Below are positions 4,090 to 61,928 of a DNA stretch of 64,000 nucleotides, piece by piece. The notes beneath the pieces were generated by a model that did not search any database, was not told the DNA's origin, and was given only the letters and a program-made list of their open reading frames with translations. Within the stretch, counting starts at the first letter, position 1. Every line of letters starts with the position of its first letter. Origin of the DNA: Candidatus Omnitrophota bacterium (lineage in GTDB: Bacteria > Omnitrophota > Gorgyraeia > Gorgyraeales > Gorgyraeaceae); the NCBI GenBank assembly GCA_043814965.1, contig JBDRJN010000003.1, positions 68,564 to 132,563 on the forward strand, given 5' to 3'. A program made the translations under genes and the position numbers.

Positions 4090-5571
4090 TTACTCTTTAA
4101 TAAAGTTAGAAAAACGGCCTCCCGTAAGGGCATCCAGGTCCGCGGTGAGTTCTTGTATCCTTAGGTCAAGATCTATTTTTTCTTTAATGTCTTTAGTGTC
4201 AGAGTAATGTTTTTCCAAGACAAGTCTTCTGCGCTCAAAATATACCCTGGTCACCTCGTCCATGATATCGTCTCGCAGCTGTACCATTAACTTAGACCTG
4301 GTATCTATTGAGGTCTGAGATTCGTTCCAGACCAAATCGCCCAGGTCCCATGACAGACTGACGCCCCAATCATGAGGCCCTGTATAATACCTGTCACTCC
4401 CGCTGTCATAGGTAACAGTCTTATCGTAGTCTAAAGACAAGTCGGGAAGTATTGCCTTGACCTTGGCCTTCCTCCTCCAGGACCTTATTTTATCAGGATG
4501 GACTTCAGCATAATCTATCGCATCGCCTTGCACATCATTTATAGTGGGCTCATATTTAAATAAAGAACTAAAGATATCTTCTTGTGTCATATTTTTTAGA
4601 AAGGGCCTGTCTATGTTAGTCTTATATAGCCCTTTATTCGAAGCAACCAATATCAGGCCTTTACTGCTTATTGAGATATCGTTTATCACAGAACTTCCTA
4701 TGCCCTTATACAATGTTATCCATCTTTTCATATCTTTATCAAATAAAAAGACATTTCCGGCAGTAACAGCATACATATCATCCCCTAGACGATCCATCTT
4801 TTTTACTGCCTTGGAATCCAGGCCTTCAAGTTCAAACCTCCTCCAGCTAACCCCTTTATCAGAAGTCACAAATATCCCCTTGGTTGTAGTGATAAATAGT
4901 TCTTTGTCCTTTACCAGTATACTATTCATGGAACTTGAGATATCGCTTTCGTATTCCTCCTCTACATCATAATCAGGCTCTTCGGCTGTCGAAGAAACAA
5001 ATACCCTGTCCCATCCGAATTGGTTATTTTTATAAAGCCCGTTGTCTGATATCACAAATATATCCTCTCCCAGAAAATCTATCCATTCAATACCCAATCC
5101 AGCTACCTTTCCAAAGACATTGTCCCAGGTCGATCCCTTATCATGGCTGATAAACAAGCCTTTTTTTGTACCAACATAGACCAGGCCATCCTTAAAAGCA
5201 ATGTACTTGGCGCTCTTGGTTTCCGCAATACCCTTAAATACATCCTGCCATCCAGTTACTCCACCTATACTCCTAAAGACACCTTTTTCTGTCAACACAA
5301 AGACTTCTTGATCTATTATACCTATAAAATTTATACTATCCTCGATCGTAACAGAAAAGACTCCCTTCCAGGTCAAGCCCATGTCGCTGCTTCTATATAG
5401 CCTCTTCGAACTTGCCGCATATATAACTCCAAACTCATCTATAGCGACTTCTTTGATGTCAGGGTCTTTTATACCTCCTATAAGCTCCCAGCTTGTGCTG
5501 GAAAAGCAAGGCCTCTCTAGAGAAAAAAAGAACACAAAAAACAGCACTAAGATAGCATGAAACGCCTTCAT
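4090..5571 (-). CDS. secreted hypothetical protein with BNR/Ycf48-like (S-x-D-x-G-x-T-W) beta-propeller repeats
   Basis: Signal peptide (MKAFHAILVLFFVFFFSLE); three BNR-like motifs (SSDMGLTWKGV, SHDKGSTWDNV, TSDKGVSWRRF); C-terminal coiled-coil-like tail. Confidence 0.5.
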   Translation of the reverse strand: MKAFHAILVLFFVFFFSLERPCFSSTSWELIGGIKDPDIKEVAIDEFGVIYAASSKRLYRSSDMGLTWKGVFSVTIEDSINFIGIIDQEVFVLTEKGVFRSIGGVTGWQDVFKGIAETKSAKYIAFKDGLVYVGTKKGLFISHDKGSTWDNVFGKVAGLGIEWIDFLGEDIFVISDNGLYKNNQFGWDRVFVSSTAEEPDYDVEEEYESDISSSMNSILVKDKELFITTTKGIFVTSDKGVSWRRFELEGLDSKAVKKMDRLGDDMYAVTAGNVFLFDKDMKRWITLYKGIGSSVINDISISSKGLILVASNKGLYKTNIDRPFLKNMTQEDIFSSLFKYEPTINDVQGDAIDYAEVHPDKIRSWRRKAKVKAILPDLSLDYDKTVTYDSGSDRYYTGPHDWGVSLSWDLGDLVWNESQTSIDTRSKLMVQLRDDIMDEVTRVYFERRRLVLEKHYSDTKDIKEKIDLDLRIQELTADLDALTGGRFSNFIKE

Positions 5572-5663
5572 GGCACACCTCCTTAAAAATATAGATATTC
5601 GGGCTTGATTTGTCTCATACAGAATAGACTGGGTTTAAACTAGGGGTAATAAAAGAATAATCT

Positions 5664-6086
5664 CTAGCCAGAAAGAGACTTTAAAAAATCTTGTATTTTT
5701 TTCTTTGTACTCTCTTTAAGGTCCATAAAAGAGACTCCTGCATTATATATCATCTTTTCGCCTTTTACATACTGTACTTTTGTAAGGGCTTCGATGGTAT
5801 CCCTGCCGCCAAAGATAGGAGGGTCTACTTTTGTGGAAAGAACCGTATTTATGGAAAGTTTTTTACTTATAGCAAAAGACGCGCCGCCCGCACTGATATC
5901 CCTGCCCTGGGAGATATCCCATTTTGCATCAGGGTCCTTTGCATCTTTATATCTTACTATGAAACCGACATTGAACCTGGGGGATTTTCTCTTTTCCGTA
6001 ACAGATGCACCTAGGTACATCTCGCAGTGAGGGCACTCATCAAGATGCTCTTCTATATTCTCTAAACAAAACTGGCAGGTTTTCAT
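5664..6086 (-). CDS. PilZ-domain protein with N-terminal C4 zinc ribbon (putative c-di-GMP receptor)
   Basis: CxxC...CxxC at the N-terminus; PilZ signatures RxxxR (KRKSPRFNV) and DxSxGG (DISAGGASF). Confidence 0.7.
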   Translation of the reverse strand: MKTCQFCLENIEEHLDECPHCEMYLGASVTEKRKSPRFNVGFIVRYKDAKDPDAKWDISQGRDISAGGASFAISKKLSINTVLSTKVDPPIFGGRDTIEALTKVQYVKGEKMIYNAGVSFMDLKESTKKKIQDFLKSLSG

Positions 6087-6197
6087 AGCTATACCTTTGT
6101 ATGGTACTAAAAGCCTTTGAGGGGAGACTATCTTTATAGTATTATTGTACTACTTTTGCATGATCTAGGCAATAAAAATTTATCCCTCTAAAAAAGG

Positions 6198-6345
6198 TAG
6201 GGGAGCTTTAAAGCTCCCCTACTGTTGTAGACAGGGTTTAGGCGGGAGCGAAAAAGAAAACGGTGTAAAATTTTCACGCTGGGAAAATTTTACGTCCTCG
6301 AAAGCAGTGCTCACGGGCAGCCAAGAGCAACCTTTGCCCTTAAAT
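6198..6345 (-). repeat. composite stem-loop intergenic repeat: GTAGGGGAGC palindrome plus AT-stem hairpin module, inverted copy of the element at 45265-45500
   Basis: Perfect palindrome gtaggggagctttaaagctcccctac (6198-6222). Reverse complement of 6225-6290 reads cgtaaaattttcccagcgtgaaaattttacaccgttttctttttcgctcccgc, near-identical to 45325-45380. Confidence 0.6.
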
Positions 6346-6386
6346 TACTATCTAAATTGTACTATGTTGATATTCTATGGAAGGTA

Positions 6387-7220
6387 TTAAAAAACTTTTT
6401 TACGCAGGCTGTCTTTTAAGTCCAGATAATATTTTCCTTCTTCTTCTTTCCCATGCTTTATGCAGCCTGTACCATATATGCGGCATTTTTTTGAAAGCTC
6501 ATCCACGAGAAGCTTGGTTTGTTTATCGTCAAGATCGGATTCATCCAGCAGCTTTTGAAGAGCGGTTATCCTGAACTTATCCATACCTACTCTATGTAAA
6601 TATGACACCTGGTCTTTATGCCCCCCTTCTTTAGAGGTAAGGGGCTTATCTATCAAGAGGAAAGGGTGCTCTACGCTGACCCTCAACCAAAAATCATAAT
6701 CTTCACAACAAGGCAGGCCCTCATCAAAAAAACCTACCCTTTCAAGCAGCTCCTTCCTGATCATGGCTGTTGACATGCTGACAACGCATGCATTAAGGCA
6801 TCTGTCAAATATATACCCATGGTGCTTTTTGTGGATATTTTTCTGATTCAATATTTTTCTGTTCTTATACCATATTTCCTGGGTATGCGAGACAAGATAT
6901 GTGGGCTGGTTTTCCATCTCTCCAAGCTGTATCCAAAGTTTTTCCTTATCCCACCGATCATCTGAATCAAGAAATGCCACAAACGCGCCTTGCGCCTTTT
7001 TAATCCCTAGATTACGCGCGGAAGAAGGCCCCAGGTTGTCTTGCCTTAAACATTTTATCCGATCATCGGGGTAAGAATCAACTAAACTCCGAGTCTCGTC
7101 CTGAGAGCCATCATCTACTACGATAAGCTCAAAATCTTTATAAGTCTGATCCAGTACTGACTCTATGGCCCTTTTTAAAAAAAGGGCCCTGTTGTAAGTA
7201 GGTATGACTATGCTTATCAC
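6387..7220 (-). CDS. family 2 glycosyltransferase
   Basis: IVIPTYNRALFLKRAIESVLDQTYKDFELIVVDDGS, DSDD and ED motifs typical of GT2. Confidence 0.85.
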   Translation of the reverse strand: MISIVIPTYNRALFLKRAIESVLDQTYKDFELIVVDDGSQDETRSLVDSYPDDRIKCLRQDNLGPSSARNLGIKKAQGAFVAFLDSDDRWDKEKLWIQLGEMENQPTYLVSHTQEIWYKNRKILNQKNIHKKHHGYIFDRCLNACVVSMSTAMIRKELLERVGFFDEGLPCCEDYDFWLRVSVEHPFLLIDKPLTSKEGGHKDQVSYLHRVGMDKFRITALQKLLDESDLDDKQTKLLVDELSKKCRIYGTGCIKHGKEEEGKYYLDLKDSLRKKVF

Positions 7221-7426
7221 TTGCTTATATCAAGAGATTTGCGCAACTGAATCGGTATAGTTTTTAGATAAGCTACGTACCTATCCCAGGAGATATCTTG
7301 TTTTGTTTCCATAAACGGCACGCCTCTGGATGTGTTTTCCTCTTTGTATGTCTCCCACGCGCCGCTCTTTAGGAAGGTATAAAGGAATACAAGCAAAATC
7401 AATATAAAGAAAAACAGTTTTCTCAT
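7217..7426 (-). CDS. small membrane-anchored hypothetical protein
   Basis: 69 aa; N-terminal hydrophobic helix; 4 bp overlap with the downstream GT2 gene suggests co-translation. Confidence 0.35.
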   Translation of the reverse strand: MRKLFFFILILLVFLYTFLKSGAWETYKEENTSRGVPFMETKQDISWDRYVAYLKTIPIQLRKSLDISK

Positions 7427-7486
7427 CTCTTCCCCCTTTTTTTAAAGATGTCTTTCTGCCTGCGGGTGGCCCTGGCCTTCATCGTC

Positions 7487-8230
7487 TCACCTGTTTACAA
7501 TGCTTGCAAAATAACCTGCGCCAAATCCATTGTCTATATTTACCACGGTTACGCCTGGCGCGCAGGAATTGATCATTGTAAGAAGCGGTGCTATACCTTT
7601 AAAACTAGCGCCATATCCTATGCTCGTAGGTACAGCTATGACCGGGCTGGTAATAAGCCCAGCTACTACGCTTGCCAAAGCCCCCTCCATCCCAGCAGCC
7701 ACGATAACTACATTAGCTTTTCTCAAGTCATCTAGCTTATCAAATAACCTGTGTATGCCGGCTACCCCTACATCATATACAGCCTTTACGTTATTTCCCA
7801 TGACCTCCGCAGTGATCCTTGCCTCTTCAGCTACCGGCATATCGCTTGTGCCAGCTGTCAATACAAGGACTGTCTTTTTATTTTTAGGTTTTTTCTTTTT
7901 CAGGTAGATTATTCTGGCGAGTTCGTTGTATTGAAGGTCTTTGCGGGTCTCTTTCAAAAAGTCATAGAGTCTTCTACTGGCTCGTGTAAAAAGGATAAAG
8001 CTGGTCCTTTTTAAAATATCTTCCAGGATCTTCCTTACGTGCTCTGGCCTTTTACCCTCGCAATAGACGACTTCCGCAAAGCCCTTGCGCATTGCTCTAT
8101 GATGATCAAGGCGCGCAAAATTCAAGTCATTGTAAGGCAAGGTCTTTAATATGTCATACGCCTTTTTTACGCTGACTTTTTTATTATATAAGTCATTTAA
8201 TAGTGATCTGATCGGTTTTTTAAAGCTCAT
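7487..8230 (-). CDS. larB: LarB-like PurE-family carboxylase/hydrolase (nickel-pincer cofactor biosynthesis family, COG1691)
   Basis: 247 aa; ~110 aa N-terminal extension then a PurE/AIR-carboxylase-like fold (AGTSDMPVAEEA...VVIVAAGMEGALASVVAGLITSPVIAVPTS). Confidence 0.6.
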   Translation of the reverse strand: MSFKKPIRSLLNDLYNKKVSVKKAYDILKTLPYNDLNFARLDHHRAMRKGFAEVVYCEGKRPEHVRKILEDILKRTSFILFTRASRRLYDFLKETRKDLQYNELARIIYLKKKKPKNKKTVLVLTAGTSDMPVAEEARITAEVMGNNVKAVYDVGVAGIHRLFDKLDDLRKANVVIVAAGMEGALASVVAGLITSPVIAVPTSIGYGASFKGIAPLLTMINSCAPGVTVVNIDNGFGAGYFASIVNR

Positions 8231-8231
8231 T

Positions 8232-8525
8232 TTATTTAAAGATAAAGTATAAAATCACTATTATTGAGATCCCTGATAAGATATAGAAGTCGTTGAAATA
8301 AAATACATCCTTGATCTTGTCAGATAAAAGGCCGGGCCCTGCCTTGCCTGATGAAAAAACGCCTTTTTTACGATAAATATCGAGGTCTTCTACTTTAAAT
8401 CTTACATAGACCCCTCCTATTTTGTAAGAAGGTATTTTCTCTGTTTTTACAAATTCGCTTAACTCGTCTTCCTTGATACCAAGATAATTACTAGCTTCTC
8501 TTAAAGTCAAAAATTTTTTCATCAT
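8232..8525 (-). CDS. excisionase/MerR-type HTH (HTH_17) protein with C-terminal transmembrane anchor
   Basis: N-terminal LTLREASNYLGIKEDELSEFVKTEKIPSYKIGGVYVRF HTH_17-like; C-terminal hydrophobic FYILSGISIIVILYFIF. Confidence 0.6.
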   Translation of the reverse strand: MMKKFLTLREASNYLGIKEDELSEFVKTEKIPSYKIGGVYVRFKVEDLDIYRKKGVFSSGKAGPGLLSDKIKDVFYFNDFYILSGISIIVILYFIFK

Positions 8526-8540
8526 CTTAAAAAATTCTTT

Positions 8541-9062
8541 CTAAGCGGATTTCTCTTTTGCTATCCATTCATCCACTACTTGCCTGTCAAATTTCCATTC
8601 GTTCTCTTCTCTGACTGCCGGCAGTTTTCCGGCCTTTGCCCAGTTAAGGATATTCGATTCATCTACTTCCAGGTATGCGGCGAGTTCTCTTGCATTAAAA
8701 AAACTTTCCTTTTTACCTGACAAGATGCTCATCATATCACATTTACCCTGCAAAACAGCCCCTGGCTCGATACCTAACCTTGGAGTCGTGATGTCTCCGA
8801 TCACGTGGGCGCGGGAAAGGATCTTAAGGTCTTTGGACGCGACCACGTTTCCTGTGATCTTGCCTCCCACAATGATCTCCTCGCCCTGTATGTCTGCTTT
8901 TACAGTGGCATTCTCTCCTATCGTAAGAGATCCTTTCGTATCCAATTTTCCATCAAAGCTGCCATTGATCCTGAGGTTAACAGGGTCTTTAAATGTAAGC
9001 GTACCTTGCATGCTAGCATCAACATCAAGTATTTTTTCCTCTACCTTATCACGTCTTGCCAT
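8541..9062 (-). CDS. bactofilin-domain protein fused to a C-terminal excisionase-type HTH (HTH_17) domain
   Basis: Bactofilin beta-helix repeats (LTFKDPVNLRINGSFDGKLDTKGSLTIGENATVKADIQGEEIIVGGKITGNV). C-terminal ELAAYLEVDESNILNWAKAGKLPAVREENEWKFDRQVVDEWI. Start placed at the ATG with an AAAGGGGG RBS 8 nt upstream. Confidence 0.7.
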   Translation of the reverse strand: MARRDKVEEKILDVDASMQGTLTFKDPVNLRINGSFDGKLDTKGSLTIGENATVKADIQGEEIIVGGKITGNVVASKDLKILSRAHVIGDITTPRLGIEPGAVLQGKCDMMSILSGKKESFFNARELAAYLEVDESNILNWAKAGKLPAVREENEWKFDRQVVDEWIAKEKSA

Positions 9063-51889: not shown

Positions 51890-52585
51890 CTAGTTGGTAG
51901 GTTCAAATGATATGATAACATTGAAAGTTATCTGGTACTGGCTCATGCCTTCTGGGAATGGCGGGAAAGGACTTGCATCTCTTATGCTATTTAAAGCTAT
52001 CTCTCTAAGATAACTATTATCTGTGGAACTCTCATCCACTATATTGACTTGAATAAGCTCGCCTCTTGAAGTTACTGTAAAAGAAAGGAAGACCTCGCCT
52101 TTAGCTAGGTCCTTTTTTGAATAATAATTGTTATTTGCGTAAGTCCTTATCTTCTCTCTGACAGAACGATAATAGCTTACATAGGTAGCCTTCTTTGCTT
52201 CATCTTTCTCTTCTTGCATCATTTTCTCAAAGTTTACACCTTCAATAAAAGATGCTGTATCTATATGCCTTACCTTTGGTTTTATAAAATCTTTTTCTTT
52301 CTTTTCTGGTTTTGGGGGTTTAAGGATGTCTTCTTTTTTTATATCAGGAAGTTTTTCCGCAATAGGCTGGGGCTTGATACCTTTGATAGCTGTCCTTTTT
52401 TGTATAGGCTTTATGCCTACTAATTTTTTATCCGGGGGGTGTTTTATCTCTACGTAGGCCGTCTCCATATCTTTTGTATCTTTCTTTGTAATAAAGAAAT
52501 CAGCCCATGGAAGCGCGATAAAAAAGATAGAGTGTATCAGGGTTGAGAAAAGAAAGGCTATTTTAAAAGTCTTGTTCTCTGGCAT
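51890..52585 (-). CDS. tonB: TonB-family energy transducer
   Basis: N-terminal TM anchor, Pro/Lys-rich spacer, C-terminal TonB-like domain; directly downstream of a TonB-dependent receptor. Confidence 0.7.
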   Translation of the reverse strand: MPENKTFKIAFLFSTLIHSIFFIALPWADFFITKKDTKDMETAYVEIKHPPDKKLVGIKPIQKRTAIKGIKPQPIAEKLPDIKKEDILKPPKPEKKEKDFIKPKVRHIDTASFIEGVNFEKMMQEEKDEAKKATYVSYYRSVREKIRTYANNNYYSKKDLAKGEVFLSFTVTSRGELIQVNIVDESSTDNSYLREIALNSIRDASPFPPFPEGMSQYQITFNVIISFEPTN

Positions 52586-52666: not shown

Positions 52667-54532
52667 TTAAAACTTCATCCTTATGCCGCCATAGTATGCC
52701 CTGCCTGGGACAGGATAATTTTTCTGTTCTTCATAAGCCCTATCTGTGATATTTTTTATTTCAAACATCAACTGAGTATTTTCTCTTAACTTATAGTCAA
52801 GACTGATATTGCCTACAGCATAATGAGAAAGTAATGCCGTATTATCTGCGTTGACGTATCTTTTTGTCTTATAAAGAAGGCTTAGGCCTATCTCTAATTT
52901 GGAAACAGGTGAATATATAAAATTCAACTTATAGAGATGCCTAGGCCTATATATAAGCCATTTTTTTGTATTTCTATCTTCTGCTTCAAGATATGTATAA
53001 TTAAAATTTGTTTTTAACCAATGCGCTAGCGCGATTTCAGTTTCAAACTCAACGCCTTTGATCGAAGCTGAATTCAAGTTTTCAGGCCTCCACCACCACG
53101 AATTATCAACTGTCCACTCTATCATGTCCCTTATATTGGTCCTAAAAAAAGTAGCGTCCATTTTCAATTTATTAAAGAGGTAGCCGCTGCATCCAAATTC
53201 CAAAGATTCTGCTTTTTCCGGGCCCAGCATGGTATTGCCTTCTACGCCTCCCCATACACCCCAATCTTCACGCGGCCAATATAGGTCGTTAAACGTCGGG
53301 GCCCTGAATGACTTGGCAGCTAATGCATGGGCCTTTATTGCATTAAACAGCCAAAAGTTAAAGCTTACGCTAGGTGAGTTTCTATCTCCGAAATTCGAAT
53401 AATCATCCCATCTATTTCCGAATTTTAGGGTCCCCATATCAAATACATCTATCTCTGATTCAAAATAAAACCCCTTAAGATCATAAGCTCTCTTGCTGCT
53501 AATAGAGCTATTTAGCCTGTTTTCCCGAAAGCTAAAACCAAACGCTGTCCTATAGTCTTCTAAGAATTTCTGGGAGATCTGAAAATCAGCCCCGTATACC
53601 TTTGTATGATTTGTGTCTCTACTAACAGGCTCAAAGGTTTCTGTAAACTCCAGCCTATCGGAATTACAAAAAGTCTTAACTAGCAGGTCCTGCCCTTCAA
53701 ATAATTTACCTTTATACGTGACATCCAGGTAGTTAGAGAATGTTTCCTGTTTGTCATCCAGGTCCTCTGAGGTCACAGCACCGATATTTCCCACTTCAGA
53801 ATTATAATAACCGCTGGAAACGCTTATGCGGCTTTCATCATCAAATTGATATCCAAAATTAGAGTTTGCATTGTTGCTTAAACAATCGCTGTTGTCCCTG
53901 TGTCCATGCGATGCTAAATAATCATAGGATAGAAAATAATCGAAGTCCTTTATCTTATCCCCATAACTTAAAGAATTAAACTTTGTATTAAAAGATCCGA
54001 ACTTGCTTACTACCTCTGCCTTTTCCCCTTTATTTCCTTTTTTGGTTATTATATTTATAACTCCTCCTATTGCATTAGCTCCATAGATACTGCTTGCGGG
54101 GCCGCGCAGGACCTCTACTCTTTCAATATTTGAAAGAGAGATCCTATTAAAATCAGTAACTCCATCTCGAGGCGTATTAACAGGCCTTCCATCCAGAAGA
54201 GTTAAAACCTGGCTAGACGAAGCGCCTCTTGTATGAACGGATTTTGATGACCCATTGGACCCATACTCTAAGATATCAACAGATGGTAATAGCTCCAATA
54301 CTTCCGTGATCTCAGTAATAGAATTCGCTTTTATGTCTTCTTCTGAAACAATACTCACGTTTTGCGTGGAATATCTGTACCCCCTTTCCACCCTGGATGG
54401 CGTAACCACGATCTTCTCAAGGTCAATACTGTAGCTGTTTTCTTTCAGTTTATCGTCCTGTGCGAATACTATACTGGCTGAAGCTAACGCAAGCAGATAA
54501 AAAATAAACACCAAGTACTTCAACTTATCCAT
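52667..54532 (-). CDS. TonB-dependent outer-membrane receptor (probable corrinoid/BtuB-like)
   Basis: Signal peptide from MDKLKYLVFIFYLLALASASIVFA; TonB box/plug (IVVTPSRVE); beta-barrel ending in terminal F; start moved to the ATG with a GGAAAGGAA RBS. Confidence 0.85.
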   Translation of the reverse strand: MDKLKYLVFIFYLLALASASIVFAQDDKLKENSYSIDLEKIVVTPSRVERGYRYSTQNVSIVSEEDIKANSITEITEVLELLPSVDILEYGSNGSSKSVHTRGASSSQVLTLLDGRPVNTPRDGVTDFNRISLSNIERVEVLRGPASSIYGANAIGGVINIITKKGNKGEKAEVVSKFGSFNTKFNSLSYGDKIKDFDYFLSYDYLASHGHRDNSDCLSNNANSNFGYQFDDESRISVSSGYYNSEVGNIGAVTSEDLDDKQETFSNYLDVTYKGKLFEGQDLLVKTFCNSDRLEFTETFEPVSRDTNHTKVYGADFQISQKFLEDYRTAFGFSFRENRLNSSISSKRAYDLKGFYFESEIDVFDMGTLKFGNRWDDYSNFGDRNSPSVSFNFWLFNAIKAHALAAKSFRAPTFNDLYWPREDWGVWGGVEGNTMLGPEKAESLEFGCSGYLFNKLKMDATFFRTNIRDMIEWTVDNSWWWRPENLNSASIKGVEFETEIALAHWLKTNFNYTYLEAEDRNTKKWLIYRPRHLYKLNFIYSPVSKLEIGLSLLYKTKRYVNADNTALLSHYAVGNISLDYKLRENTQLMFEIKNITDRAYEEQKNYPVPGRAYYGGIRMKF

Positions 54533-54678
54533 ATTCCTTTCCTTTCCCCTCTCGCGAAGGTAGTTCCCACGATAAACAATAGACCGGGCTAATCTAACAA
54601 GCATCAGATATTACCGTTGCGCGGCAGCCATCCGCCCTAAGCAGATGGTCCCGAACAGCCATGGTCTTGCGTATAGCT

Positions 54679-54711
54679 GCGAGGGACACCTGGGATCGAA
54701 CCAGGATTTCC
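54679..54711 (-). other. tRNA 3'-half-like fragment (T-arm plus acceptor 3' strand) with no 5' half
   Basis: The minus strand reads ggaaat-CCTGG-TTCGATC-CCAGG-tgtccct-c-gca, a canonical GGTTCGATCC T-arm and 7 nt acceptor strand; no matching 5' acceptor, D- or anticodon arm upstream. Confidence 0.4.
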
Positions 54712-54746
54712 TTTGTTTATCCGGCTAAAATTTTTGTTATTAAATA

Positions 54747-55421
54747 CTATTTGTATTTCTTTATATCCAAAAACCAGTATTTCCAAAAACCTTCCTTAAG
54801 AATTGGCTCGCTTTCTAATATCTCAATGTTTCTTTTAAAGATCGGGCCGTCAATTACTATAGTATGGAATTCTCCGTTTTCACCGCAGGGACAAATATTT
54901 TTTGACTTAAGTTCTTTTAGCAGATCCCTATCAACCAGCCTGCCCACAAAATCTTTTCCAAACTTATCCGCCTGGCAGCTCACAACAATAGCTTTAAAAC
55001 CTGTTTCTATAAACTCTTCAATGATATCTGAGGCAGAGACATTCCAAAGCGGTTCCATAGGAGTAACATCTGCATCATTACATACGCGCTCAACCCAATC
55101 TTTATGCTCATCCAAATAAATATCTCCAAAAACCATTTTCTTAAGGCCTTTTTCTCTTAGCTCAGATACAGCTTCTTTGAATTCCCTTTCGTATTCTTTC
55201 ATATCATCAGTTACTTCTTTTTGGATCAAAGGTATACCTACAAGCTCTGCCTGAAGCCTTAAGAGGTCTTTTTCTATTCCGTGAAAACAGCCCCTTTTGT
55301 GCTTTCTGGATATAAAATTCAAGAAATATTTTACATCATATCCCTGTTTCATTGCTTTATAACATGCGAAACAACTATCTTTTCCTCCGCTCCACGAAGA
55401 AATAATACCTAGTTCATCCAT
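54747..55421 (-). CDS. PP-loop ATP pyrophosphatase of the Dph6/MJ0570 (COG2102) family
   Basis: SGGKDS PP-loop near the N-terminus, ~220 aa alpha/beta ATP-PPase fold plus C-terminal extension; overlaps the cobS stop by 13 bp. Confidence 0.7.
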   Translation of the reverse strand: MDELGIISSWSGGKDSCFACYKAMKQGYDVKYFLNFISRKHKRGCFHGIEKDLLRLQAELVGIPLIQKEVTDDMKEYEREFKEAVSELREKGLKKMVFGDIYLDEHKDWVERVCNDADVTPMEPLWNVSASDIIEEFIETGFKAIVVSCQADKFGKDFVGRLVDRDLLKELKSKNICPCGENGEFHTIVIDGPIFKRNIEILESEPILKEGFWKYWFLDIKKYK

Positions 55422-56164
55422 AAACCAAACCTTTCCAGTAAGAATATACCAAGCAATACAATCACTTCTACAAGCTCATTTGTTGCGCCAAGAGTATCAC
55501 CTGTTATACCGCTTATTTTGCTTTTTATATGTTTTCCTATTATATATACGGATATAATCGCTGCTCCCATGAGCATTAGGCTTTGTATTTTCCAAACTAT
55601 AGCCATACAGCCAATAGCAGCTATAGTAGAAAAAATAAATATCTTTGGATCAACTCCTTTGATAAAGCTCTTTGCTTTACCTTCTTCCCTGGCATAAGGA
55701 AACAAAACCATAGACAATACAAGCGACCACCTGCTCAATACACACATAAAAATAAGTGAATTAGATTTTGATGTTATACTTATAGACGAAAGAAAAGCCA
55801 CCTTTAAGCTTATAATACCTATTAAGCTCAAAACACCCATTACTCCTATATGAGAATCACGCATGATATTAAGCATATCTTCTTTGTTTTTCCTGCTTAA
55901 TAACGCATCCATTGTATCCGCCAGGCCATCTAGATGAATACCTCCAGTAAGAACAATGAGAAAAATTATTAAGATCATATTTATAACAATCTGTTCAAAA
56001 CCAAGAAAATACAAAAACTTATCAGTCCCGGTCAATATAAGGCCCAACATCAATCCAACCAAAGGAAAATACACCATAGATCGAGGTATTTTTTTCTCAT
56101 CCAATTGTTTTATCTTAATAGGGACTATAGTTAAAAATTGTAAAGCTGTTAAAAAACCTTTCAT
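55409..56164 (-). CDS. cobS: adenosylcobinamide-GDP ribazoletransferase (cobalamin synthase)
   Basis: MKGFLTALQFLTIVPI N-terminus, polytopic membrane protein, ~250 aa. Confidence 0.9.
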   Translation of the reverse strand: MKGFLTALQFLTIVPIKIKQLDEKKIPRSMVYFPLVGLMLGLILTGTDKFLYFLGFEQIVINMILIIFLIVLTGGIHLDGLADTMDALLSRKNKEDMLNIMRDSHIGVMGVLSLIGIISLKVAFLSSISITSKSNSLIFMCVLSRWSLVLSMVLFPYAREEGKAKSFIKGVDPKIFIFSTIAAIGCMAIVWKIQSLMLMGAAIISVYIIGKHIKSKISGITGDTLGATNELVEVIVLLGIFLLERFGLWMN

Positions 56165-57222
56165 GATTTATCTCTCTCAGCCACACCTGCGCTTTTAAAA
56201 GTAGCCATCTCAGTCATTACCTTAATACCTGCATCTACTATACCTATAGCCAAAGCTGCGCCAGTTCCCTCGCCAAGCCTTAGATCCAGATCTAATACAG
56301 CGTTAAGTCCTAAATGAGCCAGGATTATTACATGGCCTTTTTCTACTGAAGAATGTCCTGCTATCATATAGTCTCTAATTTTTGGTTCAAGATGATAAGC
56401 TATTAAAGCAGCTGCGCCGGATATAAACCCGTCTATTACTATAGGCACTCTTCTGGAAGCTGCCCCTAAAATCACGCCGCTCAATCCGCCTATCTCAAAT
56501 CCGCCTACTTTTGAAAGCACATCTATCGCGTCTTTAGGGTCAGGTTTATTTACATCAATAGCTTTTTTTATAATATTTATCTTATTTTTCAGGCTGTTAT
56601 CATTAATGCCTGTTCCTCTTCCTGTAACATCTTCTACGTTTTTTCCAGTAAGTACTGCTGTTATAGCGCTGGAAGGCGTAGTATTGCCAATACCCATGTC
56701 TCCTGTTCCTATAATATCAATTCCTTTTTTGAATTCCTGTTCAAAGATATCTATACCTGCTTCGATCGCGCTTATAGCTTCTTGCCTTGTCATGGCTGGT
56801 TCTTTCGCCATGTTCTTTGTGCCATAATTTACTTTTTTAATAATAAGATCCTGCTGAGGTTTTAAGTCACTGGCAACCCCCAGATCAGCAACCGCCACTT
56901 TCGCGCCAACATGTTTTGCCAATACATTTATTCCCGCGCCGCCCCTTAAAAAATTATAGACCATTTGCGGCGTGACCTCTTTTGGAAAAGCGCTTACTCC
57001 TTCTTCTGTCACCCCATGATCCCCGGCAAATGTAAAAATAACTTTGTTCTTAAGTGAAGGCGCCTCTTTTCCGGATATACCGACAACCAGCCTTGCCAGT
57101 TCTTCCAATCGGCCAAGGCTTCCCTGCGGCTTTGTAAGATTGTCCAGCCTTTCCTGTGCCTTATCCATAAGAGCGGTGTCCAAGCCTTTAATATTAGAAA
57201 TAGTTTCTTGTATTTTTTTCAC
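56161..57222 (-). CDS. cobT: nicotinate-nucleotide--dimethylbenzimidazole phosphoribosyltransferase
   Basis: LTKPQGSLGRLEELA and GIGNTT motifs; 353 aa. Confidence 0.9.
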   Translation of the reverse strand: MKKIQETISNIKGLDTALMDKAQERLDNLTKPQGSLGRLEELARLVVGISGKEAPSLKNKVIFTFAGDHGVTEEGVSAFPKEVTPQMVYNFLRGGAGINVLAKHVGAKVAVADLGVASDLKPQQDLIIKKVNYGTKNMAKEPAMTRQEAISAIEAGIDIFEQEFKKGIDIIGTGDMGIGNTTPSSAITAVLTGKNVEDVTGRGTGINDNSLKNKINIIKKAIDVNKPDPKDAIDVLSKVGGFEIGGLSGVILGAASRRVPIVIDGFISGAAALIAYHLEPKIRDYMIAGHSSVEKGHVIILAHLGLNAVLDLDLRLGEGTGAALAIGIVDAGIKVMTEMATFKSAGVAERDKS

Positions 57223-57224
57223 TT

Positions 57225-57749
57225 TTATTCTCCTTTAATTTTTATCGGTAAACCTGAGGCCATAAAAAATACTTCATTGGCTTCTTTTGCTACTATCTGA
57301 TTCATTCTGCCAGCAATATCCCTAAAATCTCTTCCTAACCTGCTTTCAGGCACAATACCTAAGCCTACTTCATTTGACACTATGATCGATCGAGATCTGT
57401 TTTTGTTTAAAGCAGCCAGTATTCCGGAAATTTCTTTCTCTATGTCTTTTTGACTTTTTCCGTCCAGCATAAGATTGGATATTAAAAGAGTCAAACAATC
57501 TATTATGACAACATCATACTTAAGATTTATTCTTTTTAATAAGCTCGCTATGTTTTTTGGTTCTTCAAAAGTCTTCCAGGATTTAGGCCTTTGTTTTTTA
57601 TGCAGCCTTATACGCTCTTTCATCTCTTTGTCCAAAGCCTGGCAAGTAGCGACAAAAGCGGCTTTCTTGGTTTTTTCTTTGGCCATCTTTAGAGCAAATC
57701 CACTTTTACCGCTTCTCGCGCCGCCTAAAATAAATGTGATCTTATTCAT
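57225..57749 (-). CDS. cobU: adenosylcobinamide kinase / adenosylcobinamide-phosphate guanylyltransferase
   Basis: P-loop ILGGARSGKS; 174 aa. Confidence 0.9.
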   Translation of the reverse strand: MNKITFILGGARSGKSGFALKMAKEKTKKAAFVATCQALDKEMKERIRLHKKQRPKSWKTFEEPKNIASLLKRINLKYDVVIIDCLTLLISNLMLDGKSQKDIEKEISGILAALNKNRSRSIIVSNEVGLGIVPESRLGRDFRDIAGRMNQIVAKEANEVFFMASGLPIKIKGE

Positions 57750-58344
57750 TTAAATGTCCTTTATCATTAAATAACAATACTTCTCCTTTATTATCTTTAT
57801 ATTCAACTATAGTAATACTAGCTAGATGCGGGAGCTTTATTGACCAAATACTTTTTTCATGCAGCAGATCTTTTAGGATCATCCTTATAACCCCGCCGTG
57901 CGTAACTATTCCAACTGTATTATCTCTATTTAAAGATATAATCTCTACCAGGGTTTCTTTTATCCTCTCTTCAAAATCCCCAAGATTATCTCCTTTAGGA
58001 ATAGTGGTTTGAAATGGGTCATTAAGCCAGGCTGAATAAATATCAGGGTGCTTCTTTATGATATCTTCATGCTTTAAGCCCTCAAAAATACCGAAATTTA
58101 TCTCTCTGAGATTAGATAATTTTTCTATACTAATATCTTTAAACGCTATCTTTGCAAAGTTCAAAGCGCGCTTGGAAGCACTAGAGTAAACTTTTTGTAT
58201 TCTTTCTTCTTTCAGCCTGTGAGAAACCCTATCTGCCTGCACCCTTCCTGAATCATTAAGATCTATATCACTAATACCGCAATATCTTCTATCTACGCTC
58301 CATTCGGTCTGTCCATGTCTAATCAAGATCAATCTTGTTGACAT
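57742..58344 (-). CDS. cobC: alpha-ribazole phosphatase (histidine phosphatase superfamily)
   Basis: LIRHGQTEWS (RHG motif) and a downstream catalytic His; position in the nucleotide-loop assembly cluster. Confidence 0.8.
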   Translation of the reverse strand: MSTRLILIRHGQTEWSVDRRYCGISDIDLNDSGRVQADRVSHRLKEERIQKVYSSASKRALNFAKIAFKDISIEKLSNLREINFGIFEGLKHEDIIKKHPDIYSAWLNDPFQTTIPKGDNLGDFEERIKETLVEIISLNRDNTVGIVTHGGVIRMILKDLLHEKSIWSIKLPHLASITIVEYKDNKGEVLLFNDKGHLNE

Positions 58345-59132
58345 TTATTCTCTCCTGAGGCTAGTATCACATAAGGCTTGAAAGAAATAGGGTTTTTTTT
58401 CACCACTACTACGGTATTATACACTGACTCTATATTCTGATAGGTCAATACCTCATTAGGGGGCCCGTCCTTAAAAACAGCCCCATTATTTAATAACACT
58501 ATCCGATTGCAATATTCACTTGCCATGTTCAAATCATGCATTACCACTATTATAGTAAGTAGTTTTTCCTTGTTCATCGCCTTCAATAAATCAAGTATCT
58601 GTACCTGATGCCCTATATCAAGGTGAGCAGTAGGTTCGTCCAATAAGAGCAATATAGGCTCCTGCGCAAGGGCCTTTGCTATTATGACCCGCTGACGTTC
58701 ACCAGCGCTAAGCTCGTTTATTTCCTTATCTTTTACGCACAATGTATCTGTCATGCCCAAAGCATTGTGCGCTATTGAAAGATCCTTCTTCGTCTCAAAT
58801 TGCATCCGCCCCAGATGCGGGATCCTCCCCATAAGCACGATCTCTTCTACGCTGAATGAAAAATTTATAAGTGTGTCCTGTGGTACAAAAGCTGTTCTTC
58901 TGCAAAATTCTTTCAGGCCCATGGCCTTTATGTCTTTTTCTTCGAGAGTGACTGTGCCTGACGCTGGAGACAATGTGCGGCTCATCAATTTTAAGAGAGT
59001 TGATTTCCCTGACCCGTTTGGCCCGATAATACCGAGAAATTCCCCTTTTTTTATCTCAAAAGAGATATCCTTTATTACTAATGTCTTATCATAGCCTCCT
59101 GAAAGATTGCTTACTTTAATGAGATTGTCCAT
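58329..59132 (-). CDS. ABC transporter ATP-binding protein (BtuD/FecE-like)
   Basis: Walker A GPNGSGKST, signature LSAGERQRV, Walker B LLLDEPT. Confidence 0.85.
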   Translation of the reverse strand: MDNLIKVSNLSGGYDKTLVIKDISFEIKKGEFLGIIGPNGSGKSTLLKLMSRTLSPASGTVTLEEKDIKAMGLKEFCRRTAFVPQDTLINFSFSVEEIVLMGRIPHLGRMQFETKKDLSIAHNALGMTDTLCVKDKEINELSAGERQRVIIAKALAQEPILLLLDEPTAHLDIGHQVQILDLLKAMNKEKLLTIIVVMHDLNMASEYCNRIVLLNNGAVFKDGPPNEVLTYQNIESVYNTVVVVKKNPISFKPYVILASGENKCQQD

Positions 59133-59136
59133 ATAT

Positions 59137-60099
59137 CTACCTGACCCTTTGTTTTCTTTTTAGTAAAAACATGAATATCGGAGCGCCTACAAGGGCTGTA
59201 ATGACTCCTATAGGTATTTCCAGAGGCGGCATTATAGTGCGGGAAAGCATATCGCATAATATCATGAATATCGCTGCTGCCAGGCACGTAGATGGTATAA
59301 GGACCTTGTGGTTGGGTCCGACCAGAAGCCTCATCATGTGAGGGACAATAAGTCCCACAAACCCGATTATTCCGCATATGGATACAAGGCCGGCGGTTAT
59401 CAGAGCTGTAATAAAAAATAATGTCTTTTTAATAACCTCTGTGTTTATGCCCAGATGGACTGCTTCTTCCTCTCCTATACTTATAGCGTTCAGATCCTGT
59501 GCTAAAATAAATATAGCCGAGACGCCAAGCACAACTATAAAACCAACTATAAAAAGAAGCCTAATATCATAGACCTGCAAGTTACCCCACAGCCACCACA
59601 TCATGCCATGTAAGGCTTCGTTGCTGGATACAGAGATCAAAAATACAATTATCGCGGAAAGCGCTATTGACACTATAACGCCCGATAAAATAAGGGACTG
59701 CACCCCTACTTTATTCCCCTGCCTGGCCATATTATAAACTAATATTATAGTAAGGATCGCTCCTAAAAACGCTAAAATAGGCAGATATGCAGCTGATATA
59801 CCTATAATAATAGCGATAACAGCCCCCAATCCTGCGCCGCTAGAGGTTCCTAGTATGTATGGTTCTGCAAGCGGATTCCTTAAAACAGCTTGCAGCGCCA
59901 CACCTGAAACTGCCAGGCCTGAACCAGCCAAACTAGCCATTAATATGCGGGCTAGCCTCAAATACAGTATAGGCAGGTTTTCTTGAAGAAATAATTCAGA
60001 TAGGCTAAGCCTAACCGAACCCTTTGTAAGCGCCAACAATATAGAGCCTATCAATATCAAAAATAAAGCCGCTATTTTTCTTTTTGCAGATTTTGTCAT
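59137..60099 (-). CDS. FecCD-family ABC permease (BtuC-like)
   Basis: ~10 TM helices, FecCD-type conserved Gly-rich segments. Confidence 0.85.
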   Translation of the reverse strand: MTKSAKRKIAALFLILIGSILLALTKGSVRLSLSELFLQENLPILYLRLARILMASLAGSGLAVSGVALQAVLRNPLAEPYILGTSSGAGLGAVIAIIIGISAAYLPILAFLGAILTIILVYNMARQGNKVGVQSLILSGVIVSIALSAIIVFLISVSSNEALHGMMWWLWGNLQVYDIRLLFIVGFIVVLGVSAIFILAQDLNAISIGEEEAVHLGINTEVIKKTLFFITALITAGLVSICGIIGFVGLIVPHMMRLLVGPNHKVLIPSTCLAAAIFMILCDMLSRTIMPPLEIPIGVITALVGAPIFMFLLKRKQRVR

Positions 60100-60941
60100 G
60101 GATATAACCTCTCATAGAGTTCACTGATGGATACGCCCAGGCGAGGGCTAGGCCTTAACAATATATCGGGATTGATGTCATTATATATCCGGCTATTTTT
60201 AACCGCGGCTATTCCCTCCCAGCCCAAACGCCTTCCTACCATCTTTGCTGCATCTTTATTTACCATGTAAGCCAGGATAATGCAATCCGGGTCGCGCTTT
60301 ATTACTTCTTCGGGACTGAAATAGCTATACGGCCTGTTGACATCACTGCTGATATTGACCCCCCCGGCCAATGCAATCAACTCGTCTATAAAAGATCCTT
60401 TGCCTGCGGTCATCAAAGGATCTTTCCAGAACTCAATAAAAACTTTTACCTTGTCCTTTTCAGGGATCAATATTGTCTTTGACGTTACAGTTTCTATGTC
60501 TTTTTTCATCCTATCGATTAATTCGGCTGCTGCTTTGCTACGGCCGACAATAGCAGCCATCTCCATGATAGAATCAAACATCTCTTCTATGCTGGACGGA
60601 TCACTAACATATACATTTAAACCCAATTGCCTTAATTTCCCTATCACAGGCGCCTGCTCCAAACCCGTGCAAAACACAATATCAGGCTGTAGAGACAATA
60701 TCTTTTCTGTGTTCGGCTGGCTAAATGTCCCTACCTTTTCCTTCTCCTGAGCCCTGGAAGGGTAATTACAAAAAGTGCTTACACCCACTATCTCCTCATC
60801 CAGGCCCAACGCAAACAATATCTCTGTGGTTGAAGGCGCGATAGAAACTATTTTTTGTTTATCGGCCTTGATAGGGTCTGCATCCAGCCATGCAGAACAA
60901 AAAAACAGTAAAATAAATATCAAAACACTTCTTTTTATCAT
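60096..60941 (-). CDS. periplasmic corrinoid/siderophore-binding protein (BtuF-like, class III SBP)
   Basis: Signal peptide; IVSIAPSTTEILFALGL and PDIVF motifs typical of BtuF/FhuD-type binding proteins. Confidence 0.8.
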   Translation of the reverse strand: MIKRSVLIFILLFFCSAWLDADPIKADKQKIVSIAPSTTEILFALGLDEEIVGVSTFCNYPSRAQEKEKVGTFSQPNTEKILSLQPDIVFCTGLEQAPVIGKLRQLGLNVYVSDPSSIEEMFDSIMEMAAIVGRSKAAAELIDRMKKDIETVTSKTILIPEKDKVKVFIEFWKDPLMTAGKGSFIDELIALAGGVNISSDVNRPYSYFSPEEVIKRDPDCIILAYMVNKDAAKMVGRRLGWEGIAAVKNSRIYNDINPDILLRPSPRLGVSISELYERLYP

Positions 60942-60946
60942 ATAAA

Positions 60947-61190
60947 AATAAAAAACCCCGACTCCATAAAGTCGGGGTTAATCCCTCGGTTCTTAACCCT
61001 TGATCCCTCTTCGCCCTCCGCGAATAAATAAAGAAATTACATTGTAAGGTTTTCTGACTTAAGGATCAAACTACTGGTTGCGCCTTCTCACTCCACTTAC
61101 GGCAAGTAATGGCTTATTGCAACTTTCGTCCCCTATTACAGCAGCGGGGCTGCGTTGGATTTTCACCAACTTCCCTTAAACAACATAATA
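60947..61190 (-). ncRNA. cobalamin riboswitch (aptamer ~61070-61190) with an intrinsic-terminator expression platform (60947-60978)
   Basis: The minus strand reads GGGAAgttgGTGAAAATCCaacGCaGCCCCGCTGCTGTAAtaGGGGAcGAAAG...AAGCCAttACtTGCCG (conserved core plus B12 box), then aaccccgact-ttatgg-agtcgggg-tttttt just before the btuF-like ATG. Confidence 0.8.
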
Positions 61191-61264
61191 AAACATTCTA
61201 TTAATCTAATTTATACAATAAATTAATGAACGTGTCAATAAAAATCAAATACAATTTCAAAAGT

Positions 61265-61783
61265 TCAATACTCTATCCCTTTGCGCGCTATTTGTTTCTT
61301 CTTAAAAGGGTGTTTCTTTTCTACCATCACTGTCACATAATCAGAAAAGGCTTCTATATTGGATATATCGCCCCTGCCCGTCAGGACAAGCTCCATTTGT
61401 TTGGGCATTTTTTTAATGAACTTCAGGAATCTTTCTATATCAAGGAAACCTTGATCCAGCACATTTATGATCTCATCCAATATCACCATGTCATACTTAT
61501 TGCTAAATGCAGCTTTTTCGACTTTTTTAAAATCCTCATCAACCTCAGATCTAAGCTCTTCAATTTTGACTGGTTTCCCTTGGAATATAGGATGTATTTG
61601 TTTAAACTTCACTAGCTCTATACCCTCTATCCCCCTAAGGAGTTTTTCTTCCCCTGTCTCAATAGAATCTGGTTTTAGAAATTGGAATATAGCTACCTTG
61701 AGCCCCTGGCCTCTAGCCCTTACTGCTAAGCCAATACTGCAAGTAGTCTTTCCTTTTGCATTCCCTGTATAGATATGTATCAT
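61265..61783 (-). CDS. cobO: cob(I)yrinic acid a,c-diamide / corrinoid adenosyltransferase (CobA/CobO/BtuR family)
   Basis: P-loop-like GNAKGKTTCSIGLAVRA, ILDE; the track ORF begins at a TTG, and I use the first in-frame ATG (MIHIYTG). Confidence 0.85.
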   Translation of the reverse strand: MIHIYTGNAKGKTTCSIGLAVRARGQGLKVAIFQFLKPDSIETGEEKLLRGIEGIELVKFKQIHPIFQGKPVKIEELRSEVDEDFKKVEKAAFSNKYDMVILDEIINVLDQGFLDIERFLKFIKKMPKQMELVLTGRGDISNIEAFSDYVTVMVEKKHPFKKKQIARKGIEY

Positions 61784-61928
61784 GATTTTAATCTTACAGC
61801 GGGTCCTGTCCGCCAATTTACCCCATTAGTGCTCGGCATTAGCCTGCGCGCTAATGGGGTCCCCAAATTGCCGGCCACCCGCCTTAACTTCTTTTATTTA
61901 GTAATCGCTTATCGCTAGCAAGTAACAA

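Follow-up and report, generated by a model that had tools for sequence, protein, structure and literature searches.

Why should a gene named for diphthamide synthesis stand at the end of a bacterial operon for the uptake and salvage of vitamin B12? The question is raised by a stretch of 64,000 nucleotides (64 kb) from a Candidatus Omnitrophota bacterium (assembly GCA_043814965.1, contig JBDRJN010000003.1, positions 68,564 to 132,563 of the forward strand), referred to here as the window, in which the following gene lies directly after cobS:

54747..55421, minus strand: PP-loop ATP pyrophosphatase of the DUF71-B12 subgroup (ATG start, 224 amino acids, PF01902)

An original prediction, made from the sequence, described the product as a Dph6-like PP-loop ATPase of COG2102, co-transcribed with the surrounding salvage genes under a B12 riboswitch and plausibly acting on incompletely amidated corrinoids. 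We find that the protein very probably belongs to the DUF71-B12 subgroup and has a role in corrinoid salvage. The best overall explanation, which we put forward tentatively, is a PP-loop enzyme of riboswitch-controlled corrinoid salvage that has diverged from Dph6 and would adenylate and amidate a corrinoid.

The family assignment was borne out by a full-length match to PF01902 (Diphthami_syn_2; E 3.3e-57), in which residues 8-224 cover profile positions 5-218 of 219. PF01902 was the sole Pfam family matched, so that the protein is not a member of the CbiZ family, PF01955. The PP-loop, SWSGGKDS at residues 9-16, is intact, and a second motif, CGENGEFHT, occupies residues 179-187 (GENGEFHT, 180-187). 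A structure prediction, which had been suggested as a check, gave a confident Dph6-like fold (AlphaFold, pLDDT 97.1), to which, among solved structures, only those of PH1257 and PF0828, both archaeal Dph6-type proteins, come close (TM 0.85-0.88, 26-29% identity). Relatives were collected by a HMMER search of 1.84 billion cluster representatives, a retrieval unbiased by motif, which returned 4547 proteins; the best 150 matches retain the PP-loop (WSGGKD[SC]) and the histidine of the second motif. In an alignment of 208 relatives this histidine, His186, is 98% conserved and the PP-loop residues S11, G12, G13, K14 and D15 are 90-98% conserved, while W10, D100, H106, W109, C114, C179 and G192 distinguish the group from two Dph6 structures. 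Small insertions at residues 72-76 and 212-214 are found in the clade of the window protein and are gaps in about 90% of relatives.

Two further features of the family were considered and rejected as guides to function. An essential, subgroup-specific iron-sulfur site formed by C17, C114 and C179 was set aside because all three cysteines occur in only 82 of the 208 relatives, with no all-or-none pattern. Fusions to GNAT, VanY, DUF4116 and Cys_rich_CWC domains occur sporadically and give no clue to function, and the only fusion that fits B12, to a BtuF-like domain, was seen in one case (P0261) and is possibly a gene-calling artefact.

The subgroup itself is not new. In 2012 de Crecy-Lagard et al. 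split COG2102 into Dph6 and "DUF71-B12", the latter being defined by ENGE[FY]H in place of EGG[ED]xE188 and by clustering with B12 salvage genes (PMC3541065). The link between a Dph6-like protein and B12 had thus already been published. In the same study Glu188 was predicted to be catalytic in Dph6, and the residues by which Dph6 contacts EF2 were not retained in DUF71-B12 (PMC3541065). A review of 2016 lists the subgroup as "function unknown, B12 salvage" (PMC5041015).

The window protein has the features of DUF71-B12, namely the intact SGGKDS PP-loop, the ENGE[FY]H signature and clustering with B12 transport and salvage genes, and lacks those of Dph6. Its best NCBIfam match is the Dph6 equivalog TIGR03679 (Dph6_archaeal), at 152 bits and so below the cutoff of 197.3, and in the alignment to PF0828 the archaeal GEGGEFET corresponds to GENGEFHT, which places His186 at the position of Glu188 in the EGG[ED]xE motif. 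Bit scores were 130-300 to representatives of this His type vs 97 to PF0828, these being pairwise and search scores rather than distances on a tree of the Dph6 set. The host, moreover, is a bacterium, and to our knowledge bacteria have no EF2 diphthamide. Judged by the score and the histidine, the protein appears not to group with the true diphthamide synthetases, a grouping that the original prediction had named as counting against it. NCBI and ENA hold an identical protein (P0001) under the name 'MAG: diphthine--ammonia ligase [Candidatus Omnitrophota bacterium]' (MAG, metagenome-assembled genome), and the name 'diphthine--ammonia ligase' is also carried by the relatives P0006, P0026, P0029, P0065 and P0101. 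Because of the scores under the Dph6 equivalog cutoff and the B12-subgroup signature, this name is a systematic over-annotation, and a wrong one for thousands of bacterial proteins. The window gene is an Omnitrophota member of a bioinformatically defined subgroup, and its linkage will be no surprise to the specialist.

The DUF71 gene is the final gene of the minus-strand string btuFCD-cobC-cobU-cobT-cobS, which lies downstream of a cobalamin riboswitch. In the order of transcription the features are:

61265..61816, minus strand: cobA/btuR corrinoid adenosyltransferase, upstream of the riboswitch (PF02572, E 2e-49)
61027..61220, minus strand: cobalamin riboswitch aptamer RF00174 (89.8 bits vs a gathering score of 31.5, E 6.8e-21, full model 1-189)
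60954..60979, minus strand: terminator hairpin and U-run (11-bp stem with 6 G-C pairs, 4-nt loop, tail TTTTATTTTT)
60096..60941, minus strand: btuF-like periplasmic corrinoid-binding protein (signal-peptide-like N-terminus; in BLAST cluster 2 with the btuF of relatives)
59137..60099, minus strand: btuC-like ATP-binding cassette (ABC) permease, FecCD family (PF01032 at the orthologous position in relatives; cluster 4)
58329..59132, minus strand: btuD-like ABC ATPase (Walker A GPNGSGKST; PF00005 at the orthologous position in relatives)
57742..58344, minus strand: cobC-like alpha-ribazole phosphatase, histidine phosphatase family (PF00300, E 2.2e-54; TIGR03162 at 141.8 bits, just under the cutoff of 162.9)
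57225..57749, minus strand: cobU adenosylcobinamide kinase / guanylyltransferase (PF02283, E 1e-61; NF004469 at 202.5 bits, above the cutoff of 161)
56161..57222, minus strand: cobT nicotinate mononucleotide (NaMN):base phosphoribosyltransferase (PF02277, E 1e-141; TIGR03160 at 467 bits, above the cutoff of 319)
55409..56164, minus strand: cobS cobamide synthase (PF02654, E 5e-56; TIGR00317 at 156 bits, above the cutoff of 110)

The btuF assignment is carried over from relatives, whose btuF in L001 and L002 is PF01497 (Peripla_BP_2), the open reading frame (ORF) of the window not having itself been scanned against Pfam; BLAST cluster 2 is heterogeneous, the TonB-dependent receptor of the window having also been drawn into it. 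From btuF through cobS the genes are on the same strand and either overlap or are separated by gaps of no more than 4 nt, and the DUF71 gene overlaps cobS by 13 nt (55409-55421), so that both the overlap and the operon position were as first described. Riboswitch control was also upheld: the aptamer, which is the only Rfam match at gathering score in the window, lies upstream on the same strand, and the terminator at 60979-60954 ends 13 nt ahead of the btuF start. This hairpin is taken to be the expression platform, and the riboswitch is read as an OFF switch that acts by premature termination. When the minus strand was scanned for terminators from this hairpin to the DUF71 stop, one weak site was found, a 6-bp stem (3 G-C pairs) within btuC at 59707-59693, which was discounted. 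Since this is the only other terminator-like site on the strand, co-transcription from btuF through DUF71 is well supported, and we consider it very probable that the DUF71 operon is co-transcribed under control of the riboswitch. Close Omnitrophota relatives (L001, L002) have the same operon. Within the 64-kb window there was no cbiB, cobD or cbiZ, no cbi gene of de novo synthesis and no gene for a B12-dependent enzyme, and profiles built from the loci for cbiB, cobD, a radical SAM gene, an AsnB-like gene and cobY all failed to find a counterpart in it.

The gene neighbourhood was then compared across relatives. An alignment of 55 diverse relatives was used to scan one genome per GTDB species, giving 595 confirmed stretches, the best 80 of which were kept as species-level loci; these are the closest relatives of the window DUF71 and not the whole family. 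Bacterial loci come from Omnitrophota, Planctomycetes, Lentisphaerae, Kiritimatiellae, Atribacteria, Dehalococcoidia and other Chloroflexi, Nitrospirota, Desulfobacterota, Bacteroidota, Spirochaetes and Acidobacteria, and archaeal loci from Bathyarchaeia, Methanosarcinales/ANME, Thermoplasmata, an Asgard MAG and others. Cluster representatives of the locus genes were checked against Pfam, and 44 loci were scanned with Rfam.

A B12 transport or cob gene was present on the same strand within three genes of DUF71 in 53 of the 80 loci, spread over more than 10 phyla, and at least two different B12 families were present by the same measure in 40. A core cob gene was counted in 34 of the 80. The commonest immediate neighbours were btuF or a TonB-dependent receptor (28), followed by cobC (9), cobS (8), cobU (8) and archaeal cobT (6). 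Of the 44 loci scanned, 19 had an RF00174 riboswitch ahead of DUF71 on its strand, and in L051, L056 and L080 no other gene comes between the two; no such riboswitch was found in nine archaeal or context-free loci that were scanned. The linkage to cob genes therefore recurs and is not unique to this genome, which settles in its favour the comparative check proposed with the original prediction. Two clades of His-type DUF71 have little or no B12 context: in Bacteroidota (L058, L061, L075, L078, L082, L083) the gene is near genes for RNase H and a carboxyltransferase, and in Dehalococcoidales (L021, L022, L026, L029, L034, L037) it follows genes for a PD-(D/E)XK nuclease and a cobC-like histidine phosphatase. 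Because these clades have no B12 transport and cob neighbours, the subgroup may lack one single function.

What reaction might the enzyme carry out in such an operon? In the mechanism we favour, DUF71 would be made as the last cistron of the btuFCD-cobC-cobU-cobT-cobS transcript and would not act on EF2; when corrinoid cofactor is plentiful, the upstream cobalamin riboswitch would terminate the operon transcript early. As in PP-loop amidoligases such as Dph6 and NadE, ATP would be bound at the SGGKDS loop. An imported corrinoid would then be adenylated at a carboxylate oxygen with release of pyrophosphate, and the resulting acyl-AMP would be resolved by ammonia to give the corrinoid amide. His186 in the substrate pocket would serve as a base or as a corrinoid ligand, its placement in the pocket resting on the published analysis of PF0828 (PMC3541065). 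The net effect would be that salvaged corrinoids are re-amidated, or their amidation completed, in a non-producer that would be unable to fix such corrinoids because it is without CbiA and CbiP.

Carboxylate adenylation followed by amidation of the corrinoid is ranked first among the chemistries, and is possible rather than probable, because the chemistry of the family would be kept, because a plain hydrolase would have no use for a PP-loop, and because a second adenylating enzyme is a recurrent neighbour. The intact and conserved PP-loop argues for an adenylation step. The second enzyme is a protein with an Asn_synthase domain only, which flanks DUF71 in 6 loci (L042, L043, L044, L050, L068, L074) and is found elsewhere in L046, so that two adenylating enzymes adjoin in B12 salvage operons. 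It is about 310 amino acids long, lacks a glutaminase domain and bears a zinc-ribbon-like CxxC...CxxC at the C-terminus. In the window, and in 15 of the 80 loci when 10 kb is taken as the limit, cobS occurs with cobU or cobY and no cbiB nearby; cobyric acid, the product of a CbiZ-type reaction, would there have no local route onward. The more specific claim that DUF71-B12 acts as a corrinoid carboxylate ligase dependent on ATP and ammonia, performing a repair or maturation step in B12 salvage, we regard as doubtful, if still a serious candidate.

Several points weigh against this mechanism. No glutaminase or other ammonia-delivering partner was found linked to the DUF71 gene, and cbiB could lie elsewhere in the genome, its absence from the window covering 64 kb only. 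We found no experimental characterisation of any DUF71-B12 protein in the literature, including that after 2012. The pattern by which the loci were retrieved included the His motif, which makes motif conservation among the loci circular, and His conservation is independent of that pattern only in the HMMER search of 1.84 billion representatives. The neighbourhood counts depend on our own crude ORF calling and on BLAST clustering. Finally, the anticorrelation of DUF71-B12 with CbiZ suggests a role in remodelling over one in amidation (PMC3541065).

This last point underlies the published alternative. From a strict anticorrelation between DUF71-B12 and CbiZ in bacteria, the authors of the 2012 study cautiously proposed a CbiZ-equivalent role in the salvage of pseudo-B12, and they found btuCDF next to 75 of 102 DUF71-B12 genes and cbiB next to 18 of 102 (PMC3541065). 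The enzyme would remove the nucleotide loop at the f-side-chain amide, so starting cobamide remodelling or pseudo-B12 salvage, and CbiB would rebuild from the product, cobyric acid. Consistent with this, cbiB and cobD are in the gene string of DUF71 in 9 loci (L019, L036, L039, L046, L049, L062, L069, L074, L080), no CbiZ-like cluster was found in any of 84 loci, and the window operon holds cobT, cobS, cobC and cobU for re-attachment of a lower ligand, with no known cleaving enzyme. Yet amide hydrolysis needs no ATP, whereas the PP-loop is as highly conserved as given above, and the window and 71 of the 80 loci lack cbiB, the linkage of DUF71 to transport and nucleotide-loop genes being stronger than that to cbiB. 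A reviewer of the 2012 study likewise objected that a PP-loop ligase would be odd as a hydrolase, and the authors conceded that they saw no hydrolase-specific change (PMC3541065). In a variant of this proposal ATP might activate the amide oxygen, as in QueC-type PP-loop enzymes, which is chemically conceivable. Taken as a whole, we judge replacement of CbiZ to be unlikely, while deserving a place close behind the ligase.

A second alternative is that the substrate in the salvage operon is not a corrinoid but a CbpA peptide modified by the radical SAM/SPASM protein CbpB, or a precursor of the lower ligand or linker. A CbpA-like peptide gene and a CbpB gene are present in the operon of DUF71 in L001, L002, L003, L008, L036, L042 and L074. 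The peptide is conserved, Lys-rich and 35-55 amino acids long (...[IV]AYRxKCxxTxNGLSH[YF]...; a weak match to NCBIfam CbpA TIGR04164), and the radical SAM gene is CbpB TIGR04163 at 507-687 bits, above the cutoff of 375. The pair was located in L003 and in these regions:

L001, 6588-8203: CbpA/CbpB pair
L002, 8484-10004: CbpA/CbpB pair
L008, about 6180-7697: CbpA/CbpB pair
L036, about 7500-9007: CbpA/CbpB pair
L042, about 1310-2855: CbpA/CbpB pair
L074, about 4480-5995: CbpA/CbpB pair

CbpB is directly upstream of DUF71 in L002, L003, L008, L042 and L074, with cbiB between the two in L036 and cobT and cobS between them in L001; in L038 the radical SAM cluster is also upstream, with cobD between, and the peptide region is lost at the contig end. 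The parent enzyme Dph6, in addition, acts on a protein side chain, a radical-SAM-modified histidine. Nevertheless, the window and about 90% of the loci lack this pair of peptide and radical SAM genes, while the linkage of DUF71 to btu and cob genes persists there, and the loss in the subgroup of the EF2-contact residues of Dph6 (PMC3541065) also speaks against a substrate of this kind, which we consider improbable.

That the protein is a genuine diphthine-ammonia ligase, as its NCBI name, its best NCBIfam match and the fold shared with PF0828 and PH1257 might suggest, is effectively refuted by the sub-cutoff equivalog score, by the replacement of Glu188 by His, by a host that is plainly bacterial (sigma-70, GatCAB, DnaE, Pol I and TonB in the window) and by the embedding of such genes in B12 operons in many phyla.

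Beyond the DUF71 gene the minus strand continues as follows:

54533..54746, minus strand: conserved structured spacer between DUF71 and the receptor gene, a candidate second corrinoid riboswitch of the adenosylcobalamin (AdoCbl) type
52667..54604, minus strand: TonB-dependent outer-membrane receptor, BtuB-like (plug and barrel; best NCBIfam match TIGR01779 at 255.9 bits, below the cutoff of 599.7)
51890..52585, minus strand: protein with a TonB C-terminal domain (PF03544, TIGR01352)

The true start of the receptor is probably the ATG near 54532 (MDKLKYLVF...), and not the ORF start at 54604 farther upstream: a signal peptide of typical form, MDKLKYLVFIFYLLALASASIVFAQ, opens at this ATG, and the gene calls of relatives match the shorter form. 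The spacer is GC-rich and has conserved blocks common to 5 Omnitrophota loci, its copies in relatives being at:

L001, 10676-10809: spacer copy
L002, 10706-10921: spacer copy
L004, 10670-10898: spacer copy
L006, 10673-10838: spacer copy

Compensatory changes were found in 13 of the 27 predicted pairs of its closing stem. The copy in L006 scored 37 bits (E 1.3e-5) with the AdoCbl model RF01482, whose gathering score is 50, and the window copy, which carries a 63-nt insertion, had no Rfam match. In L024 and L032 a genuine RF00174 riboswitch is at the position of the spacer. These sequence features make it probable that the spacer acts as a further corrinoid riboswitch, of a different class, and gates the receptor gene. 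A T-arm-like sequence in it, GGTTCGATCCC, was considered as part of a tRNA and rejected, since neither ARAGORN nor Rfam found a tRNA. Because a conserved structured RNA separates the two genes, co-transcription of the receptor with DUF71 is less certain; the operon first envisaged thus stands from btuF to DUF71 and is weakened for the receptor.

The remainder of the window consists of bacterial housekeeping genes, including those for Pol I, DnaE, GatCAB, several aminoacyl-tRNA synthetases, sigma-70 and GroES/EL. Over positions 1-64000 the strand bias is strong: of 58 ORFs retained as probable genes, 57 are on the minus strand.

Most microbes that use B12 cannot make it, and salvage and remodelling therefore shape microbial communities. 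If DUF71-B12 is a corrinoid carboxylate ligase, auxotrophs would be able to turn de-amidated or incompletely amidated corrinoids of the environment into usable cofactor, and cobamide metabolism would gain its first PP-loop enzyme and a previously unrecognised salvage step. The window brings no new concept but is a clean example, in which a riboswitch and a full nucleotide-loop toolkit are present with no cbiB nearby, a combination that argues against a simple "CbiZ substitute". The question of which reaction DUF71-B12 catalyses is only modestly sharpened by it.

It remains to set the window protein beside known systems. It shares with the described DUF71-B12 proteins (P. furiosus PF0295, C. 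perfringens YP_695745) the two-domain PP-loop architecture, the ENGE[FY]H signature and clustering with btuFCD and salvage genes (PMC3541065). The differences are mainly of context: the host is an Omnitrophota bacterium, the gene lies between cobS and a TonB-dependent receptor, there is no cbiB in the operon, and the protein has the insertions of its clade. With Dph6 (yeast YLR143W; archaeal PF0828 and PH1257, PDB 3RK1 and 2D13) it has in common the fold (TM 0.85-0.88), the PP-loop, the GExGE core and the ATP-contact residues S, G, G, K, D, His47/48 and Thr187/189; it differs in its identity of only 26-29%, in His186 for Glu188, in the bacterial host and in the B12-salvage context.

CbiZ, the adenosylcobinamide and pseudo-B12 amidohydrolase (PF01955), is likewise linked to corrinoid transporters and salvage genes, and the same niche was proposed for DUF71-B12 in 2012, but CbiZ has no sequence or fold kinship to DUF71 and uses no ATP. 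CbiA/CobB and CbiP/CobQ carry out ATP-dependent amidation of corrin carboxylates, the type of reaction proposed here for DUF71, but are unrelated to PP-loop enzymes. They belong to a MinD/DTBS-like P-loop family with a glutamine amidotransferase (GATase) domain, are glutamine dependent, convert ATP to ADP and Pi, and act on intermediates of de novo synthesis.

Lastly, CbiR, a cobamide-remodelling phosphodiesterase of the AP endonuclease 2 superfamily, is also an accessory salvage enzyme encoded beside cob and transport genes in many phyla (PMC7733943). In Omnitrophota relatives of the window an AP_endonuc_2 gene (xylose-isomerase-like TIM barrel) lies two genes past the receptor:

L001, 13478-14413: AP_endonuc_2 gene
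L002, 13697-14623: AP_endonuc_2 gene
L003, 10590-11516: AP_endonuc_2 gene

This gene was rejected as CbiR (27 bits vs a cutoff of 105), and in the window a profile search found no copy of it, groES/groEL being at that position instead. CbiR is an unrelated TIM barrel and differs from DUF71 in hydrolysing a phosphoribosyl bond, but it provides the precedent that uncharacterised genes in salvage operons can encode new remodelling chemistry (PMC7733943).

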